Assembly: GCA_964451815.1 (NCBI GenBank)
Contig: CAYVIW010000004.1
Span: 1 to 61,160, forward strand
Direction: 5' to 3'
From: an uncultured Planctomycetia bacterium
GTDB lineage: Bacteria > Omnitrophota > Gorgyraeia > Tantalellales > Tantalellaceae
Length of the DNA: 61,160 bases
The translations under genes were made by a program, and so were the position numbers. Below the pieces are notes generated by a model. That model was not told the origin of the DNA and did not search any database. It was given only the letters and a program-made list of their open reading frames with translations. Positions 1-54,063 of this stretch are shown here, one piece after another. Each line of letters opens with the position of its first letter. Within the stretch, counting starts at the first letter, position 1.

Positions 1-110
1 AAAACACCTGCATGAAACCTGGTGAAGGGATATTCGGTTGTCAAAAAGCGCTCAGCGAACTATTGCGACACAGTCTCGCAGGGGAAATCGTCCGTCCCCG
101 CAAGCACATG
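1..110. repeat. Partial, degenerate third copy of the GC-rich core shared by the palindromic elements at 30.8 kb and 37.5 kb (cut by the window edge)
   Basis: 75-101 ctcgcaggggaaatcgtccgtccccgc equals the reverse complement of 37557-37583 at 25/27 positions (hand count). Weaker block similarity lies upstream (gatatt, ggttg, agcgaac). Confidence 0.45.
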
Positions 111-145
111 CCGGCGCTTCCCCGTAAACTCCACCTATCTATGAG

Positions 146-3791: not shown

Positions 3792-4787
3792 ATGAGGGCA
3801 ATATGCTCGTTTTCCGGAGGACTTGACAGTATACTAGCGGTCAGCTTGATGCGGCAGCAGGGTATAGAGGTCGAGGCGGTGCATTTCGATAACGGATTCG
3901 GAGGTTGCGGTGAACGTGACAGTAACAGACAGCCGATACGTGATAGAGCCGCCCGCCTGGGGGTTAAGATCACTTTTATCGATGTAAGCGAAGACCTTGT
4001 GCATATCCTGAAGGACCCGAAATACGGATTCGGCAAGAACATGAACCCCTGTATGGACTGCCACCTTCTTTTTTTTAAAAAATGCGGCGAATATATGCGT
4101 AAAGCAGGGGCTTCGTTCATTGTTACGGGAGAGGTCGTCGGAGAAAGGCCCATGTCTCAGAGGAAGTGGGCCATTGAAGAAATATCCGCCAGCAGCGGCC
4201 TGGATGGCCTGATATTGAGGCCTTTATCGGCCAGGCTTATGAAGGTCACGATACCCGAGAAAAAAGGATGGGTTGACCGTGAGAAGCTTCTTGCGATAAG
4301 CGGACGCTCGCGCAAGCCTCAGATGGAGCTTGCGAAGGAATTGGGAATAGATTTTTATCCAAACGCCGCCGGAGGATGTCTTTTGACCGAAAAGGACTTT
4401 TCCAGGAAGGTCCGCGATCTTATGGAGAATAAGCCCGGCTTTGATATGACGGATGTTGACCTGTTGAAGTCAGGCAGACACTTCCGTATTTCCCGTACGG
4501 CCAAGCTTATCCTTGGAAGAGACGAAAAAGAGAACGAGACACTTGTGAAAAACATGCCCGGGAAGACGTATTTTATGACCATAGAGGTTCCCGGTCCCGT
4601 GGGTGTTATAACGGGACCTTTGGTCGGAGAAGAGGAGAAACTTGTTTCGCGTATCATTTCCGCGTATAGTGACATACACCCGGGAGAGGAAATGACCATA
4701 TCTCGTAATACGGCTAAAGGCGGGAAGGCTGAGATAATCAAGGTCAAAGCTGTATCCAGGAAGGACGTAAAAAAATACCTGGTTTAG
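3792..4787 (+). CDS. PP-loop ATP pyrophosphatase, ThiI/MnmA-like thiolation enzyme family (no THUMP or rhodanese domain seen)
   Basis: SFSGGLDS PP-loop at the N-terminus, plus NPCMDCH and GGC cysteine motifs and GEVVGERPMSQ. Positioned between thiF and nifS. Confidence 0.6.
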   Translation: MRAICSFSGGLDSILAVSLMRQQGIEVEAVHFDNGFGGCGERDSNRQPIRDRAARLGVKITFIDVSEDLVHILKDPKYGFGKNMNPCMDCHLLFFKKCGEYMRKAGASFIVTGEVVGERPMSQRKWAIEEISASSGLDGLILRPLSARLMKVTIPEKKGWVDREKLLAISGRSRKPQMELAKELGIDFYPNAAGGCLLTEKDFSRKVRDLMENKPGFDMTDVDLLKSGRHFRISRTAKLILGRDEKENETLVKNMPGKTYFMTIEVPGPVGVITGPLVGEEEKLVSRIISAYSDIHPGEEMTISRNTAKGGKAEIIKVKAVSRKDVKKYLV

Positions 4788-9793: not shown

Positions 9794-10369
9794 ATGGCGA
9801 GTTTGAAGGGAACGCAGACAGAGAAAAATCTTTTGGCCGCTTTTGCCGGTGAATCACAGGCCAGGAACCGGTATACCTATTTCGCGGGCGTGGCGAAAAA
9901 AGCTGGCTATGAGCAGATAGCGGCGGTATTTCTGGAGACGGCCGATAATGAAAAGGAACACGCCAAGATGTTCTTTAAGCATCTTGAAGGCGGCGAAGTC
10001 GAGATAACGGCTGCGTATCCGGCCGGCAAGATAGGGAATACCTCCGAGAACCTCGAGGCGGCGGCAGAAGGCGAAAAAATGGAATGGACCGCCATATACA
10101 AAGACTTCGAGAGCGTCGCGCGCGAGGAAGGATTTGAAGATGTGGCCGAGACTTTCAAGGAGATAGCGAAAGTCGAATCATGGCATGAAAAAAGGTACAG
10201 GTCTCTTCTCGCGAATGTAGAAGAAAGCAAAGTGTTCAAGAAAGGCTCCGCCGTAAAATGGCATTGCAGGAATTGCGGGTATGTGCATGAGGGCGAAGAG
10301 GCTCCCAAAGTATGCCCGGCATGTAAACACCCGCAGGCTCATTACGAATTGCTCGCGGAGAACTATTGA
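9794..10369 (+). CDS. rbr: Rubrerythrin
   Basis: TEKNLLAAFAGESQARNRY diiron domain plus a C-terminal rubredoxin-like CRNCGY...CPACKHP. ATG 9794 has a GGAG SD. The ORF-track start at 9758 overlaps dfx. Confidence 0.9.
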   Translation: MASLKGTQTEKNLLAAFAGESQARNRYTYFAGVAKKAGYEQIAAVFLETADNEKEHAKMFFKHLEGGEVEITAAYPAGKIGNTSENLEAAAEGEKMEWTAIYKDFESVAREEGFEDVAETFKEIAKVESWHEKRYRSLLANVEESKVFKKGSAVKWHCRNCGYVHEGEEAPKVCPACKHPQAHYELLAENY

Positions 10370-26956: not shown

Positions 26957-27095
26957 AACCCGGCGAATTTAACCTGGTTAAATCCGCCGGGTTAAATTGA
27001 TCTTTTATCAAATTTACCGCAAAAAAGCTCCAAAATTTGATTTTTCATCAAATCAACCTGGTTAAATCAACCAGGTTGATTTAACCAGGTTAATT
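26957..27095. promoter_or_regulatory. Array of palindromic operator-like sites upstream of clpB
   Basis: A 37-bp near-perfect palindrome spans 26957-26993. AACCWGGTT cores are centred at 26975, 27059, 27073 and 27087. TTGAT-N5-ATCAA dyads lie at 26997-27011 and 27037-27051 (extended ATTTGAT-N5-ATCAAAT at 27035-27053). Confidence 0.6.
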
Positions 27096-27110
27096 TCAGG
27101 TGGTTTTTTA

Positions 27111-30486: not shown

Positions 30487-30786
30487 ATGGACGAACATGA
30501 TCTTATAAGGATATTTAAAGCTCTGGCGGACAAGACCAGACAGGATATCCTGGAGCTTATATCCCGGCAGGAGATGAACGTTACGGATATATGTTCGGAG
30601 TTCCATGTGTCCCAGCCCACGGTGTCGCATCATCTACACATATTGAAAGATTGCGGCCTCGTGGATTACCGCAAGGAGGGCAAGAAAATATACTATTACA
30701 TAAAACAGGAAGTAATGGATGACGCTTTCGGCAGGGTCGTCAAGAAGATGCGGGTAAGGATAGTCAGAAAAAGTGAGGATGGATAG
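30487..30786 (+). CDS. ArsR/SmtB-family winged-helix regulator
   Basis: The segment MNVTDICSEFHVSQPTVSHHLHILKDCGLV is typical of the family. The CVC metal-site motif is absent. Confidence 0.8.
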   Translation: MDEHDLIRIFKALADKTRQDILELISRQEMNVTDICSEFHVSQPTVSHHLHILKDCGLVDYRKEGKKIYYYIKQEVMDDAFGRVVKKMRVRIVRKSEDG

Positions 30787-30789
30787 GGA

Positions 30790-31103
30790 TAAAGAAACAT
30801 ATTTTGGGTATTTTTTACAGTACTTTGTAGACTTGCTTTCTATCATGTTCTGACCCCTGTATGAGTATAAGGGTAAACAGATGTATGTTTGAGCGGGGCA
30901 CCGTGAAGTGAGCAAGCATGGTCCCGCCCCGCGATATCCTGGTGAGGGCGGGTTGCGAACGGAACGTCGAGCGAAGATATCACGCCGGGAGATCGAGCGT
31001 CCCCGCGAGAATATGCATCTGTTTACCCTTATTTGTTGCCTGCATAAACGTTGAATTGTGCAGAAAATACCCAAAATATGTTACAGTACTTGAATAGGAA
31101 CCA
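30790..31103. repeat. MITE-like nested-palindrome element, copy A
   Basis: Perfect 19-bp outer inverted repeat (30796-30814 / 31064-31082) and perfect 15-bp inner inverted repeat (30869-30883 / 31016-31030). The core 30893-31006 is homologous to the reverse complement of 37557-37671. Confidence 0.7.
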
Positions 31104-35466: not shown

Positions 35467-37455
35467 ATGTCTTTTTCCGTAAAATGTTTCAGGGATAACG
35501 GCGCTATAGCTTCAAAGCTCGAAACCTACGAGACCCGCCTTGAGCAGATAGAAATGGTACAGGCCGTGGAGGAAGCCATAGCCTCGGGAAGTGATCTTAT
35601 AGTCGAAGCGGGTCCGGGTGTCGGGAAAAGCCTCGCGTATCTTGTCCCTTTCATACACTGGGCTGTCACCGAAGGCAAACGAGTAATGGTATCCACATAT
35701 ACCAAGGCTCTTCAGAACCAGCTTTTTGTAAAAGACCTGCCTTTTCTCAAAGAAGCCCTTGGGCTTGATCTCAGATATGTTCTTTGCATGGGATCCGATA
35801 ATTATGTCTGCCTTAAGAAAGCTTATAAGACCTGTCAGGGTGACCTTTTCGAGGGAAAATATCATAAGAGACAGGCGGACAGGATATTGGAATGGATAAA
35901 CACTACCGATACGGGTCTTGTTTCTGATATGGAGGTTGTTCCGGATCAGCGGGTATGGGATAACTTCAAGCGCGACAGTGACCTGTGCGGGGGCAGGAAA
36001 TGTCCGCATTTTGAAGATTGTTTTTACATGACCTCTCGCAGGGAGCAGGCGAAAGCTCATGTGCTTGTGGTAAATCACGCGCTTTTTTTCACATCTCTCG
36101 GGTCTGAGACGAATTTGTTCGGGGATGTTGACGCCCTTGTTCTTGATGAGGCCCATACATTGGAAGATGTCGCGACCAACTATTTTGGTAAAACGTTCTC
36201 CTCATCAGGTATAGTGTACCTTGTTGATAAGATAAGGTCTTTTCTCGAAGGGGACACGCCGCGCCCGGGTGAGGAGGAGTATCCCGCCAGCGAGGCGGAA
36301 AACGTCAAAAAAGGATGCTCTGATCTCATTGCCGCCTCTGAGTCTTTTTTCGGCAGCGCCGAGGAAAAGCTCTTTGAAAAGGATTCGGCGGTAGAGTTCT
36401 CTCCTGAGACGCTTTCTTGCGACGATGTTATGCTCTGCGCGCAAAAACTTCTATCGACGCTTCTTACTATGGCCGGTAAGTCGCGGGAGAGCGCTTTGGC
36501 GGAAACCGTCGGCTCTTACGCTGCAAGGGTCAAAGGCCTGTGTGAGTCGATCTCCGCGATATTCGATCCCCCGAAAAGCGGATGGGTTTTCTGGGCCCAG
36601 GCTCGCACCTCAAGGTCGGCCCGTAATATCGCTTTTCATGCGTCCCCTGTGGATATAAGGGACAGGATGAGAAAAGAGATTTTCGAAAACTTTTCACCTG
36701 TAGTGCTCGCGTCGGCGACGCTCTCGGTTTCCGGCAGGGCCGGGGACCTTACCTTCATAAAGGAAAGGCTGGGTATGGACGAGGCCATGGACCTTGTGGT
36801 GGATTCACCTTTTGATTACGGCAAGAACGTTCTTGTATACCTCCCTCACGGCGCGGCCGACCCCAGTAACGATAGCGGGGCGTTCAGGCGCTACCTTAAG
36901 GACAACATCATCTCCATTTACGATGTCATGGGCGGGAGGATATTCGCTCTCTTTACCAGTTATAATATGCTGGATTCGGTTGCCGCGGGTATAGCCGCCG
37001 ACAGGCCGGATATATATATCCTCAAGCAGGGGGATATGCCCAGATATGTGCTTCTTGACGTGTTTAAAAAGAACAACAGCAGTATGCTGCTGGGGACCAC
37101 CACGTTCTGGCAGGGGGTGGATGTTCCGGGCAGCGCGCTTGAATGTGTTATAATTACAAAACTTCCTTTCGGAGTTCCTTCGGACCCGGTGAACGCCGCC
37201 CGTATACGCGCCCTGCGCGAAAAGGGACATAATCCGTTCCGGGAATACCAGCTTCCCCAGGCTATGATAATGTTCAAACAGGGGTTCGGCAGGCTTATCA
37301 GAAGCCGGTCCGATAGAGGGGTCTTCGCGGTACTTGATCCCCGGGTCCGCACCCGCGAATACGGCAGAAAGTTCCTTGAATATGTTCCCGAATGCCGCAT
37401 AACCGGGGACCTGGACGAGGTCAGGGATTTCTTTATTTCTCCCCGAACGGAATAG
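35467..37455 (+). CDS. dinG: DinG/XPD-family Fe-S DNA helicase
   Basis: AGPGVGKS Walker A, the DEAH box (LVLDEAHTLED), and a four-Cys cluster region (CMGSDNYVC ... CGGRKCPHFEDC). Confidence 0.85.
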   Translation: MSFSVKCFRDNGAIASKLETYETRLEQIEMVQAVEEAIASGSDLIVEAGPGVGKSLAYLVPFIHWAVTEGKRVMVSTYTKALQNQLFVKDLPFLKEALGLDLRYVLCMGSDNYVCLKKAYKTCQGDLFEGKYHKRQADRILEWINTTDTGLVSDMEVVPDQRVWDNFKRDSDLCGGRKCPHFEDCFYMTSRREQAKAHVLVVNHALFFTSLGSETNLFGDVDALVLDEAHTLEDVATNYFGKTFSSSGIVYLVDKIRSFLEGDTPRPGEEEYPASEAENVKKGCSDLIAASESFFGSAEEKLFEKDSAVEFSPETLSCDDVMLCAQKLLSTLLTMAGKSRESALAETVGSYAARVKGLCESISAIFDPPKSGWVFWAQARTSRSARNIAFHASPVDIRDRMRKEIFENFSPVVLASATLSVSGRAGDLTFIKERLGMDEAMDLVVDSPFDYGKNVLVYLPHGAADPSNDSGAFRRYLKDNIISIYDVMGGRIFALFTSYNMLDSVAAGIAADRPDIYILKQGDMPRYVLLDVFKKNNSSMLLGTTTFWQGVDVPGSALECVIITKLPFGVPSDPVNAARIRALREKGHNPFREYQLPQAMIMFKQGFGRLIRSRSDRGVFAVLDPRVRTREYGRKFLEYVPECRITGDLDEVRDFFISPRTE

Positions 37456-37786
37456 ATAGTGTAACATATTCCGGGCATTCTTCGCGCAATTCACCATTTA
37501 CAGCAGAAATAAGTCTAAACGGCGGTATATCTCGCCCTTGGCTTTCCTGGACCCAGGCGGGGACGTACGATTTCCCCAGCGAGGAAATCGTACTCAACGT
37601 TCCGCTCGCAACCCGCCTTAGCCTTAATATCGCGAGGCGGGACCATGCTTGCTCGCTTCACGGTGCCCCGCCTGGGTCCAGGAAAGCCAAGGGCGAAACA
37701 TGCCGTTGTTAGCATAGAGGGCAGTAAGTGGACCGCTATAACACTATCAAAAAATACCCGGAATATGTTACACTATCTGAGGAACC
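37454..37786. repeat. MITE-like nested-palindrome element, copy B (best preserved)
   Basis: Perfect 22-bp terminal inverted repeat (37454-37475 / 37757-37778), perfect 30-bp inner inverted repeat (37533-37562 / 37666-37695), and an 11-bp hairpin (37565-37575 / 37583-37593). Confidence 0.75.
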
Positions 37787-41758: not shown

Positions 41759-43867
41759 ATGATATTCGCTTCTCCTCATATAGTCGTCTGGCTCTGGATG
41801 GTCCCGGCTGTCGCTTTGTTCTTTTTGCTCTGTGCCAGGAGCAGAGAAAGGGCCATGAGGAGATTCGCGCGCCAGGGCACGCTTAAGGAGATAGCCGGTT
41901 CTTACGCACCTAGGAAAAAGAAAGCCAGGGACATTATGATGTTGGCGGCTTTTCTTTTTATGATACTCGCGCTGATGAGGCCGCAATGGGGGTTCGAGTG
42001 GAGAGAGGTCAAACGGCAGGGCATCGATATAATGATCGCACTGGATACTTCCAACAGCATGCTGGCCGAAGATGTAAGGCCCAACCGTCTCAAGAGGGCT
42101 AAGCTGGCGGTAAGAGACCTTGTCAGGAAGCTGGGGGGTGACAGGGTCGGTCTGATAACTTTCGCCGGAACAGCTTTTTTGCAATGTCCTCTGACCATGG
42201 ATTACAACGGTTTTCTTATGGCGCTTGACGATGTGGACACTTATACCATACCGATAGGCGGGACTTCACTTACAAGCGCTATATACAAGGCGGTAGAGAG
42301 TTTTGAGTCGGAGATAGAAAGCGAGAAGATACTGATAATTATAACTGATGGGGAAGACCATGAGGGAGGGCTGGAAAGAGCGATACAATACGCCAAGGCC
42401 AGGGACCTGAAGATATTTTCCGTCGGGGTGGGGTCTTCTGAAGGAGAACTTATACCTGTTCCGGGTGAAAGAGGTAAAGAAGGGTTCCTGCGTGATGCCG
42501 AGGGAAATGTAGTAAGGAGCAGGCTCAATGAGATGCCCCTGCAGCGGATGGCCCTGGAGACCGGCGGTATGTATGTAAGGGGATCCGGCGCCGGGTTCGG
42601 ACTGGATCTGATATATGAACAGGAACTCTCAAAGTTACAGCAGAGAGAGATAGGGTCAAGGATGGAAAAGGACTATAATGAAAGGTTTCAGTTGCCGCTG
42701 GCCGTAGCGCTTTTGCTTCTTTTTATAGAGCCTCTGATAGGTGACAGGAAGAAGAACAAGGAAAGTGTGACCGCGGGCATCCGGGACAAAATATCAAAAA
42801 ACAAAAGAACCCCTCGCGGCAGAAAAGTTCGGAAGGCGATTACTCTTATATCGTTATTGATCATGAATTTGTATTGCGCTAATGTTCTTGCTGTAGGAGG
42901 ATCTTCAGCAGAAAGTCTTTTGCGAGAGGAAAAGTATGACGAAGCTCTTGAGAAATACGAAAAGGCTCTTGAAAAAAGACCGCATGATCCTTTACTTGAG
43001 TATAACCGGGCCATTATTTTATACCATAAGGGTGACATGGCGCGGGCCGCAGAAGCTTTTATGAGAGCCGGTGTGCTTGGAGAAGATGAGGTTGAGAGAA
43101 AAGCCGCCTATAATGTAGGCAACACCAAATATAGAATGGGTGAATTCTTAACTTCTAAGTCCCCTGAGATGTCGATAAAGGGATATAACGAAGCCCTTGA
43201 GTATTACAAGAAAGCCATGGAGCTTGACCCCGATGACATAGATGCGAAGTATAATTACGAATTCACCTTGAACAAACTGAAGGAAGCGGAAAACGAGCAG
43301 CAAGAACAAGAAGAGCAGGAAGACGAGCAGCAGGAGCAGCAAGAACAAGACCAGCAGCAGGAGCAAGAAGAGCAAGAAGACGAGCAGAAGGAGCAAGAAG
43401 AGCAGGAAGACCAGCAGCAGGAGCAGCAAGAACAAGAAGAGCAGGAAGACGAGCAGCAGGAGCAACAAGAGCAAGATCAGCAGCAGGAGCAAGAAGAGCA
43501 GGAAGACCAGCAGCAACAGGAGGAAGAAGAGCAGGAAGACGAGCAGCAACAGGAGCAACAAGAGCAAGATCAGCAGCAGGAGCAAGAACAGGACGACAAA
43601 GATGATCGTGACGAAAAGAAAGATCCCGATAAGCGGGACGGTAAAGACGAGAGAAAAGAGCCCCGGCAGCCTGATCAAGGCCCGATGTATGAAGAGCCGG
43701 TATCCCCTGACCTCACGCAGGGCGGTGAAGATGCCGCTCCGGGCGAGATGACCGAACAGCAGGCGATGATGCTTTTGAACTGGCAGGAAGAAGAAGAAAA
43801 TAGCATGAGGAACGAAATGAGAGAGGACCAGCGAGATGAACGCCCGCCGGTATTGATAGACTGGTAA
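41759..43867 (+). CDS. batB: BatB-like vWA protein fused to a BatC-like TPR region, with a long Gln/Glu repeat
   Basis: MIDAS DTSNSM, TM segments, TPR repeats (EALEKYEKALEKRP..., ALEYYKKAMELDP), then ~100 aa of Q/E/D repeats. Confidence 0.8.
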   Translation: MIFASPHIVVWLWMVPAVALFFLLCARSRERAMRRFARQGTLKEIAGSYAPRKKKARDIMMLAAFLFMILALMRPQWGFEWREVKRQGIDIMIALDTSNSMLAEDVRPNRLKRAKLAVRDLVRKLGGDRVGLITFAGTAFLQCPLTMDYNGFLMALDDVDTYTIPIGGTSLTSAIYKAVESFESEIESEKILIIITDGEDHEGGLERAIQYAKARDLKIFSVGVGSSEGELIPVPGERGKEGFLRDAEGNVVRSRLNEMPLQRMALETGGMYVRGSGAGFGLDLIYEQELSKLQQREIGSRMEKDYNERFQLPLAVALLLLFIEPLIGDRKKNKESVTAGIRDKISKNKRTPRGRKVRKAITLISLLIMNLYCANVLAVGGSSAESLLREEKYDEALEKYEKALEKRPHDPLLEYNRAIILYHKGDMARAAEAFMRAGVLGEDEVERKAAYNVGNTKYRMGEFLTSKSPEMSIKGYNEALEYYKKAMELDPDDIDAKYNYEFTLNKLKEAENEQQEQEEQEDEQQEQQEQDQQQEQEEQEDEQKEQEEQEDQQQEQQEQEEQEDEQQEQQEQDQQQEQEEQEDQQQQEEEEQEDEQQQEQQEQDQQQEQEQDDKDDRDEKKDPDKRDGKDERKEPRQPDQGPMYEEPVSPDLTQGGEDAAPGEMTEQQAMMLLNWQEEEENSMRNEMREDQRDERPPVLIDW
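43294..43596 (+). repeat. Imperfect in-frame tandem repeat made of GAG/CAG/GAA/CAA/GAC codons (Gln/Glu/Asp tract)
   Basis: Higher-order units of roughly 57-66 nt each end in cagcagcag (EQEEQEDEQQEQQEQDQQQ-like). It produces the spurious poly-Leu ORF on the minus strand. Confidence 0.85.
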
Positions 43868-53270: not shown

Positions 53271-53660
53271 ATGTTGGGCAGGATATTTATCGGTGTTATG
53301 ATCTTGTCTTTACTTTTCGCTTTTCCCATTGAAGAGGCGATGGCCCGGTCCAGTTCTTCCGACCTTTTGAAGCAGGGTCTTCTGGGAGCCGGGTCGGGAG
53401 CGGTGGGTGGAGCGGCCTCGGGGGCCAAGGGCAGTGATGTCTGGAAAGGCGCGCTGGCGGGAGCCGGGGTTAACATTATAGGAGGAGCTTTACTTGATTC
53501 AATGAGCGGTGAAAATGTCGAAAGCGTTCAGGCAGTCGACCAGACCTCTCCCAGGGACGCTTATTCCAGCGGGTACCAGGACGGTTATCAGAACGGTTAC
53601 AAGGCGGGATACACCGAGGGGTACAAGGATGGCCTTAGAGAAGGTATGACAGGAAGGTAA
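53271..53660 (+). CDS. Secreted glycine-zipper protein, paralog 1
   Basis: Signal peptide, GLLGAGSGAVGGAASGAKG...GALAGAGVNIIGGALL, and a GY-repeat tail (SGYQDGYQNGYKAGYTEGYKDG). GGGAGG SD before ATG 53271. Confidence 0.7.
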   Translation: MLGRIFIGVMILSLLFAFPIEEAMARSSSSDLLKQGLLGAGSGAVGGAASGAKGSDVWKGALAGAGVNIIGGALLDSMSGENVESVQAVDQTSPRDAYSSGYQDGYQNGYKAGYTEGYKDGLREGMTGR

Positions 53661-53673
53661 AAGCAGGAGAAAA

Positions 53674-54063
53674 ATGAAAATGAGATCACTTATTATTATA
53701 ACGATCTTAGTCGTGGCGGTGTTCTTTTGTCAGGCGGCCTCTTTCGCGGACAGCAATTCTTCAGATATACTCAAACAGGGTCTTCTGGGAGCCGGGTCCG
53801 GAGCGGTAGGCGGAGCGGCTTCAGGAGCCAGAGGTGGGGACATCTGGAAAGGCGCGCTGGCCGGAGCGGGTGTCAACATAGTAGGCGGGGCTCTGCTTGA
53901 CTCGATCAGCGGCAAGAAAGTTGCCGAGACAAAAAAAGTGGATAATATGAGCGCGCAGAACGCTTATTCGGACGGTTACCAGTCCGGTTATGGTAACGGG
54001 TACAAAGGCGGGTATACCGAAGGGTACAGAGAAGGAATACTTGAAGCCCAACGCGGCAACTAG
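53674..54063 (+). CDS. Secreted glycine-zipper protein, paralog 2
   Basis: Same 129-aa architecture, with a near-identical central 50 aa to paralog 1. Confidence 0.7.
   Translation: MKMRSLIIITILVVAVFFCQAASFADSNSSDILKQGLLGAGSGAVGGAASGARGGDIWKGALAGAGVNIVGGALLDSISGKKVAETKKVDNMSAQNAYSDGYQSGYGNGYKGGYTEGYREGILEAQRGN

Follow-up and report, generated by a model that had tools for sequence, protein, structure and literature searches.

A 323-bp element between dinG and moxR, here called copy B, interrupts the 61,160-nt stretch of contig CAYVIW010000004.1 (GenBank assembly GCA_964451815.1) that we refer to as the window. It belongs to a previously undescribed family of non-autonomous elements of about 280–325 bp in Candidatus Omnitrophota, which in length, shared terminal inverted repeats (TIRs), target duplication judged against an empty site, absence of coding capacity and dispersal of copies, that is, on every criterion that could be tested, is a MITE (a miniature transposable element with inverted repeats). 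Copy B is an old, fixed and real copy of this element. The full explanation that we favour, with a probability of roughly 0.8, is that this old MITE copy also carries a selected, folded functional core.

Insertion, ends and spread of the element

Mobility was read from copy A, the only copy with a clean empty site. Locus L031 (L-numbers denote fetched loci) comes from a relative that shares the gene order of the window, and its gap between the arsR-family gene and yacP measures only 47 bp. The empty site reads ...GTGAGGA TGTATAGG AACCATG..., and the filled site in the window reads GTGAGGA TGGATAGG (303-bp element) TGAATAGG AACCATG. Because a single TGTATAGG stands in the empty site, copy A is an insertion with an 8-bp target duplication. 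The inserted DNA extends from GATAA... to ...AGTAC, five bases beyond the TGTAAC motif, which places the start of the element at GAYAR-TGTAAC. The terminal consensus GAYAR-TGTAACATATTYYGGGCA is common to seven copies (A, B, L018, L020, L031, L033a and L030b); the TIR consensus is GAYARTGTAACATATTYYGGGCA. The TIR arms are 22–29 bp long and 92–100% complementary, and the element ends consist of these TIRs of about 25 bp together with a subterminal repeat. The ends of copy B were transferred from those of copy A with the help of an alignment of full-length copies; a second comparison, of the L007 copy with an empty site in L030, was too diverged to give exact ends.

The preliminary description of this DNA had proposed a non-autonomous mobile element with TIRs and had suggested looking for empty sites in relatives; the site in syntenic L031 and the further copies described below support that proposal. 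The family assignment did not survive. A Tc1/IS630-type MITE with a TA duplication had been suggested by the TA that adjoins GTGTAAC at both ends of copy B, in the palindromic context AGATA/TATCT. This TA sits inside the terminal GATAG/CTATC of the element itself, since the empty site of copy A assigns the five bases outside TGTAAC to the element. Copy A duplicated 8 bp and copies of a sister subfamily 9 bp, and the ends of copy A, GATAA and AGTAC, have no common TA. The Tc1/IS630 reading is already refuted for copy A, is contradicted by the 8–9-bp duplications, and is in our judgement highly improbable for the family. The GGAACC homology past the right repeat, which had left the boundary uncertain, is flanking DNA beside the duplication and not part of the element.

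The window holds three copies, A, B and the partial copy C. Copy A is indeed the same element as copy B, as had been claimed, and its orientation is opposite, the minus strand of A aligning with the plus strand of B over the whole length. Additional copies, whose existence had been named as a test, were recovered by a profile search over all fetched DNA, giving about 17 distinct copies in all. The family was found by translating the open frames of the core, matching them to mis-called small open reading frames (ORFs) in a set of 5.8 billion proteins and fetching the corresponding contigs, while syntenic loci were obtained through relatives of DinG, whose homologues also place the organism in Candidatus Omnitrophota. 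The copies come from at least five Omnitrophota-like genomes and fall into five genome groups. Group 1 is the window organism itself, matched at 99.9% by contigs from Mono Lake-type samples; at least six more copies lie on contigs from these same samples, and we infer that these element-bearing contigs belong to the same genome as the window. The Mono Lake sediment samples are 3300001533 and the Ga06435xx series, and the 89% relative is represented in Logan SRR32456876. Groups 2 and 3 are relatives with DinG proteins 89% identical (L031/L032) and 66% identical (L030, L033–36), and groups 4 and 5 are represented by one ENA contig (L018) and by L001, a metagenome-assembled genome labelled Planctomycetia, whose copy consists of the core and a 26-bp stem with no recognisable TIR. 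Complete copies measure 279–323 bp, at a density of about one per 15–20 kb on the contigs examined, and all insertions are intergenic, among housekeeping genes and in either orientation.

Outside these genomes the family was scarcely seen. Among 185,579 GTDB species genomes the exact core 19-mer GGCGGGACCATGCTTGCTC had a single true homologue, L001, besides one chance match, and JGI metagenome contigs yielded a chance match only; the motif was too strict in hindsight. A scan of viral contigs for the core motif returned chance matches in coding regions or none, and blastn in distant mode found no match to the element among PLSDB plasmids and GenBank phages. In agreement with the preliminary description, copy B matched nothing in Rfam when E values as high as 10 were allowed; copy A gave three chance-level matches, and the whole window at gathering score against Rfam 15 gave the TPP riboswitch alone. 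A full-text literature search found no description of the motif, of Omnitrophota MITEs or of IS256 MITEs.

The surroundings are those of an ordinary chromosome, and the locus of copy B lies in the gene order clpB, dnaJ, arsR-family gene, copy A, yacP, dus, maf, radical-SAM gene, DUF6873, dinG, copy B, moxR and batA-like genes. An ortholog of copy B occupies the same place in L031 (10080–10402). In the 66% relative a main-family copy also follows dinG, with the same right junction to the conserved moxR upstream region; this locus has been remodelled, its left spacer being deleted, with a subfamily-2 element alongside and a right TIR that is a hybrid of both subfamilies. It had been proposed that copy B begins inside the dinG stop codon, and its first base is the G of that TAG (37453–37455). 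The dinG frame of L031 is three codons longer and ends at a TAA inside the TIR (10087–10089). The end of dinG has therefore given way to the insertion. Having landed on the 3' end of dinG, copy B now provides or adjoins its stop codon, and it is located upstream of the moxR promoter region. As a separate observation, copies A and B both landed on a stop codon (..GGATAGG.. and ..GGAATAG..), that of the arsR-family gene lying at 30784–30786.

The transposase, acting in trans, is most likely of the IS256/Mutator type; we infer this from the 8–9-bp duplications, from the presence of such elements in these genomes and from similar ACTGT-containing termini. Duplications of 8–9 bp are characteristic of the IS256/Mutator group. 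An IS256-family insertion sequence (IS) encoding a 428-aa protein (Pfam Transposase_mut) was found at 3875–5340 of L016, inside the P1 stem of one copy of the element, where it had duplicated 8/9 bp (CCCCGCGAG); contig L007 carries this locus without the interruption. The ends of this IS begin GAGACTGT, and those of the MITE are AGTACTGTAAC / GATAGTGTAAC; the termini are partly similar (GAGACTGTCAAG.. and GAGTGTATAAT.. versus GATAGTGTAACAT / AGTACTGTAACAT). The transposase of L016 had no copy in the other loci by tblastn. The statement that the window contains no transposase gene held as far as it was followed, tblastn revealing no relative of the L016-type IS256 protein there; the window was not otherwise screened for transposases.

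Architecture, covariation and selection of the core

The three nested layers of inverted repeats previously described in copy B were all reproduced, both in the sequence and with a repeat finder. The outer repeat (37454–37482 / 37750–37778) is 29 nt long and 93% complementary, with a perfect 22-mer inside; the inner one (37518–37562 / 37666–37710) is 45 nt long at 89% and includes a perfect 30-mer (37533–37562 / 37666–37695) whose arms stand 103 nt apart; and the hairpin 37565–37575 / 37583–37593 has 11 of 11 positions paired around a 7-nt loop. The stretches between the first two layers are mostly unpaired, in line with the reported lack of complementarity. The folding energy of the 333-nt stretch is -172.6 kcal/mol on the plus strand and -189.0 kcal/mol on the minus strand; shuffled versions averaged -96 and -108, respectively, which gives z = -12.9 and -14.9, and the fold is not due to chance. 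The same layers recur in copy A and in about 15 further copies elsewhere.

All copies follow a common plan of TIR, spacer, long and near-perfect stem P1, core, P1', spacer and TIR. The core, a three-way junction of about 115 nt, caps P1 and is formed by the hairpins P2 and P3 together with the joining strands J2 and J3, which are all but invariant. It comprises the top of P1 (GGGGAC / GU-G-CCCC), P2 with the conserved loop CCUGCGA, J2 (CUCAACGUUCCGCUCGCAA), P3 (CCCGCC/GGCGGG, with a variable loop) and J3 (ACCAUGCUUGCUCGCUUCACGGUG). P3 is swapped for CCCTAAAGG/CCTTTAGGG in one genome, and an insert of about 22 nt in P1 is mirrored in both arms in copy B and L031 and present in one arm only in L013a. 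Judged by sequence, the P2 loop (UGCGAG) could form a pseudoknot with the two GCUCGC boxes, at positions that hardly vary.

Stems of the element are maintained by compensatory change. In alignment A5, which contains the 17 distinct copies, explicit pair counts showed 84.5% of the cells of the named structure to be paired, compared with 68.4% in shuffles, and 31 of 58 pairs had changed on both sides; RNAalifold agreed. The covariation score of 0.39 was reached by none of 500 shuffles (0.13 shuffled) and fell to 0.07–0.14 when partners were slid by one to three columns. The covarying pairs include 23 in P1 and five of the 11 in P2.

A comparison of copy B with its L031 ortholog provided a measure of selection at a single locus. 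Between the window and L031, 147 of the 521 four-fold degenerate positions in dinG, moxR, yacP and arsR are different (28%), and the spacers of copy B differ at about 23–27%, the left one at about 23%, near the neutral rate. Each P1 arm differs at 9 of 27 positions, and 8 of the 11 changed pairs have changed on both sides, 7 of these 8 remaining Watson-Crick. The remaining parts are almost unchanged (J2 0/18, J3 1/24, P2 1/29), only 2 of 71 positions differing in the joining strands and P2 together. P1 varies widely among the copies of a single genome, and the cores of A and B differ by 18%; the pattern at the B locus is therefore not explicable by homogenisation through conversion, and a conversion tract would moreover have overwritten the private P1 of copy B. 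We conclude that the joining strands and P2 are under purifying selection at the fixed B locus. At the greater distance of the 66% relative, where four-fold sites are 64% different, J2 and J3 together show 3 differences in 43 positions, and P1 has changed at 63% of its positions with the stem still perfect; concerted evolution or re-insertion is possible in that relative.

The sister subfamily, which occurs in the 66% relative and is represented in L013 by a degenerate copy, has elements of about 300 bp with the TIR GATAATGTAAAAAATCTTGCTGAC and a core that is homologous to the main one and diverged from it. Its 9-bp duplications are CACGGCAAG, perfect on both sides, and TTGACCGGC/TTGACAGGC. 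A 12-bp helix (GAAAGGTCTCGC/GCGAGACCTTTC) takes the place of the two direct GCTCGC boxes. Sister-subfamily copies often directly adjoin main-family copies, and none lies within the window.

The P2 loop has been struck at the same position in three different copies by an IS unrelated to the element. Copy C, on the minus strand, reads ...GGACGATTTCCCCTGCG / AGACTGTGTCGCAATAGTTCG..., the window beginning inside the IS end, and in L016 and L017 the element is broken within this loop as well (...CCTCGCAG / AGACTGTGTCGCAATTATCG...), with an ORF starting MAYRYG about 75 nt further in. These junctions look like the two ends of one IS with a 15-bp perfect TIR, AGACTGTGTCGCAAT standing at both ends, which would have inserted at one position and in one orientation with duplication of CGCAG. 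Contigs from at least six samples break at this IS. No full copy of it was present in any fetched locus, the last contig adding only 26 nt of its end.

Coordinates of the element and of associated features (window positions unless a locus is named)
Feature	Position	Strand	Remarks
Copy B, full element, 323 bp	37455..37777	+	TIR, left spacer, P1, core, P1', right spacer, TIR
Left TIR (GATAG TGTAACATATTCCGGGCATTCTT)	37455..37482	+	Starts with the final base of the dinG stop codon
Left spacer	37483..37517	+	Not complementary to the right spacer; semi-conserved block GCAnAATTnA
P1 left arm	37518..37562	+	Lengthened by the ~22-nt insert in B and its L031 ortholog
Conserved core, ~115 nt	37557..37670	+	Top of P1, P2, J2, P3, J3; from nhmmer profile, alignment A5 and pair counts
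P2 hairpin	37565..37593	+	Arms 37565-75 and 37583-93; loop CCAGCGA at 37576-82
J2 joining strand (TCAACGTTCCGCTCGCAA)	37594..37611	+	Nearly invariant within the main family
P3 hairpin (CCCGCC ... GGCGGG)	37612..37641	+	Loop variable
J3 joining strand (ACCATGCTTGCTCGCTTCACGGTG)	37642..37665	+	Nearly invariant
P1 right arm	37666..37710	+	Mirrors the ~22-nt insert of the left arm
Subterminal repeat of the terminus (ACACTATC)	37741-37748	+	~30 nt inward of the right terminus
Right TIR	37750..37777	+	From repeat finder and full-length alignment
Copy A, 303 bp	30788..31090	-	Inverted orientation; missing from relative L031
Copy A target duplication, left (TGGATAGG)	30780..30787	.	Holds the stop codon of the arsR-family gene
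Copy A target duplication, right (TGAATAGG)	31091..31098	.	Versus the L031 empty site
Copy C, partial	77..126	-	Left arms of P1 and P2 plus the P2 loop; truncated by the IS end
IS end in the P2 loop of copy C	1..76	-	Terminal AGACTGTGTCGCAAT; not part of the element
Loop-targeting IS sites	Window 1-76 (copy C 77-126); L016 10063-10131; L017 1-105; L037 1-126		
Sister-subfamily copies	L030 202-529; L033 814-1138, 4023-4320, 12962-13288; L035 403-727, 3612-3904; L013 5080-5335		
Mis-called ORFs, examples	L007 4759-4968; L008 10001-10219; L020 10001-10210		

Further features were recorded elsewhere in the window. The TPP riboswitch (RF00059, 57 bits) lies at 183–298 on the plus strand, upstream of a thiE/thiS-thiG-thiH-thiF operon, with copy C immediately upstream of it. 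At 26965–27097, immediately upstream of the clpB-dnaJ operon, palindromic repeats (TTAACCTGGTTAA / TCAACCAGGTTGA) are clustered in what looks like an array of repressor operators for heat-shock genes; its palindromes presumably differ from the CIRCE sequence. Periodic repeats of 9 and 12 nt at 43238–43636 (26 overlapping copies in the repeat finder) are presumably a repetitive protein-coding stretch, and two 168-nt direct repeats (53351–53518 / 53754–53921; 77% identical, 403 nt apart) are probably a duplicated domain within a gene.

Possible roles of the core

Our favoured reading treats the core as a functional single-stranded nucleic-acid module and not as neutral filler. It would work when the element is single-stranded, transiently unwound or transcribed through, and would serve as a recognition platform for a protein, either the transposase of the element or a host factor. 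Invariant single-stranded joins between covarying helices give the core the look of a folded, specifically recognised single strand. The 115-nt centre is too large for cruciform extrusion from duplex DNA.

The structured RNA gene that had been offered as one explanation of the element survives as a possible role of the core and does not explain the element as a whole. On such a reading, the core and P1 would together make up an independent structured non-coding RNA, which might be a ribozyme, bind a protein or act as a riboregulator, captured by the MITE or carried as its cargo, so that the element matters for its RNA and the TIRs are merely a vehicle. A three-way junction with invariant joins and helices that covary is how a functional RNA usually shows itself, and purifying selection at a fixed locus, as well as the TIR-less copy of L001, would suit such a molecule. 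So would a possible helix ACCATG/CACGGT, which has G·U on the minus strand in most copies and G-C in L033a and L033B. What the stems lack, however, is any excess of G·U over A·C on either strand. Moreover, no conserved promoter or terminator accompanies the core, copies are oriented both ways relative to neighbouring genes, no hairpin loop is of the typical stable RNA type, Rfam is silent even at E = 10, and the exact core 19-mer is almost absent from the species genomes and metagenome contigs searched. We entertain a self-standing RNA as a genuine, if minority, possibility.

A purely DNA-level account dispenses with RNA function: the stems would be kept by templated correction between arms, through intrastrand template switching or mismatch repair of a folded single strand, and the core would be a cis-acting transposition site holding binding sites for the transposase or a host factor. 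The symmetric mismatch types fit this, as do the almost perfect stems (40 of 40 pairs in P1 and P2 of copy B are Watson-Crick), the insert that is one-armed in L013a and mirrored in B and L031, and the subterminal repeat of the terminus. Selection for transposition, however, cannot alone keep a single fixed copy intact in two species, the unpaired centre is far beyond the size for cruciform extrusion, and transposons with TIRs and target duplications are not known to need a single-stranded intermediate. On balance this account, too, is a minority possibility, with slightly less weight than the RNA.

Coding and switching explanations fare far worse. Most copies have three of their six frames open across the core, ORFs of this kind have been annotated by gene callers, and several substitutions look synonymous, all of which could point to a small protein gene such as the 66-aa ORF on the minus strand (37715–37515, ..MVPPRDIKAKAGCERNVEYDFLAGEIVRP..) or an ORF on the opposite strand. 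The calls, however, differ in frame and strand between copies; each frame is broken in some copies, by a TGA and a 1-nt deletion in copy A and by 1-nt indels in L018, L029, L030a and L033B; the most variable stretch is the P3 hairpin loop; and the variation is accounted for by base pairing. No Pfam domain was detected, and the 5.8 billion proteins contain no homologue longer than fragments, the matches being only hypothetical ORFs of 41–122 aa in differing frames and strands. The small-protein idea was dropped on account of the inconsistent frames and of indels that are not multiples of three, and little probability attaches to it. As an observation in its own right, the public 41–122-aa "hypothetical protein" calls (P0001–P0009) are translations of the core and almost certainly not genes. 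An invertible phase-variation switch, or an intrinsic terminator or insulator for dinG as suggested in the preliminary description, could be imagined from the inverted repeats that flank an asymmetric segment, from the opposite orientations of A and B, and from the start of B at the dinG stop codon. In copy A, though, the whole element including its TIRs is inverted, as a separate insertion; the inner repeats differ between copies, which leaves no common recombinase site; and at three loci, represented by 9, 5 and 3 independent sample assemblies, the orientation is always the same. A terminator is contradicted by the absence of a T-run after P1 or P2, by a scan that gave only two marginal stems of 5 bp, a number similar to that in shuffled sequence, and by copies lying in both orientations relative to their neighbours. 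Either function is very improbable.

Several observations weigh against the reading of copy B as an old MITE copy with a selected, folded core. Mismatches in P1 and P2 are G·U on the plus strand in 28 cases and A·C (G·U on the minus strand) in 30, and such equal counts are not what selection on an RNA from one strand predicts; the RNAalifold energies of the two strands (-40.9 versus -52.5) do not settle the strand. Scanning of both strands and inspection of the full-length alignment by eye found no conserved sigma-70-like promoter or terminator inside the element. The whole family rests on about 17 distinct copies. Gene conversion between copies exists, because all copies of the distant genome (L030/L033–36) have a private P3 variant in common and one of the TIRs is of hybrid make-up, and it could inflate the apparent conservation in deep comparisons. 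On the side of mobility, copy B itself has no recognisable target duplication, which fits its age, and its mobility is deduced from its family membership; no autonomous element with the TIRs of the MITE occurred in the window or in the 42 fetched loci; and the MITE and IS256-family termini are only about 55–60% similar over some 20 nt. Finally, the best-conserved part of the element is its interior, while MITEs normally keep their ends best.

Taking the MITE with a selected core as the starting point, one may go further and regard the core as a functional structured nucleic acid of a new class, RNA being the most plausible kind, spread among Omnitrophota genomes by the MITE, retained by the host at individual loci and offering its P2 loop as the dedicated landing site for a site-specific IS. 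This extension is speculative, and we consider it unlikely as a whole. If the core is indeed an RNA, it would be a new structured RNA class spreading by DNA transposition; if it acts as DNA, it would be a clear case of palindrome maintenance through compensatory change. Should both the core and the loop-targeting IS be as proposed, three layers would be stacked on one another, namely a host, a MITE with a structured core and an IS that targets its loop.

Relation to known elements

Omnitrophota are uncultured and poorly annotated, and knowledge of the ends of the element helps their annotation: it prevents spurious gene calls of 40–120 aa, explains contig breaks, and shows that the stop codons of dinG and of the arsR-family gene lie in or at element ends. 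The repeated insertion into the P2 loop provides a second example, outside Proteobacteria, of an IS landing on a repeated hairpin; IS1397/ISKpn1, IS621 and other IS110-family elements target REP hairpins in a similar way.

REP/BIME and REPIN sequences share with the element their abundance as intergenic hairpin repeats and a hairpin loop that is hit by an IS. They are, however, units of about 35 bp that have neither TIRs nor target duplications and depend on RAYT (Y1) transposases for movement, whereas the element is about ten times larger, with TIRs, duplications and a conserved non-palindromic core; membership in REP/REPIN fails on the TIRs, the target duplication and the unit of about 300 bp. 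The HEARO/omega RNA of IscB-TnpB and the bridge RNA of IS110 resemble the core in having a multi-helix fold with invariant unpaired strands inside a mobile element. These RNAs lie next to the gene of the protein that they guide, in elements without TIRs and 8–9-bp duplications; no protein gene of the HEARO or bridge type lies near the element here, and Rfam gave no match.

The IS256 family, Mutator-like elements and their deletion derivatives are alike in their 8–9-bp duplications, inverted repeats of about 25–30 bp and ACTGT in the termini, and the GATAA with which some element ends start presumably resembles the GATAAAG start of IS256. The element differs from them in having no transposase gene, in its only partial terminal similarity and in a core that has no counterpart in the L016 IS.

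The comparison with named MITE families is one of general descriptions and not of sequences. Correia/NEMIS of Neisseria, ERIC/IRU of enterobacteria, RUP of Streptococcus and MITEAba12 of Acinetobacter are likewise non-coding, about 300 bp long and bounded by TIRs and target duplications; they too occur in many intergenic copies with insertion polymorphism, fold into rods, and insert at gene ends, contributing part of a transcript or a stop codon. In contrast to these families, the duplication here is 8–9 bp and not TA, the internal three-way junction and not the ends is best conserved, the stems evolve by compensatory change, and the core is still selected at a fixed locus. In summary, the earlier mobile-element reading was right in kind and wrong in family, and it is the selected, covarying internal core that sets this element apart from ordinary MITEs.

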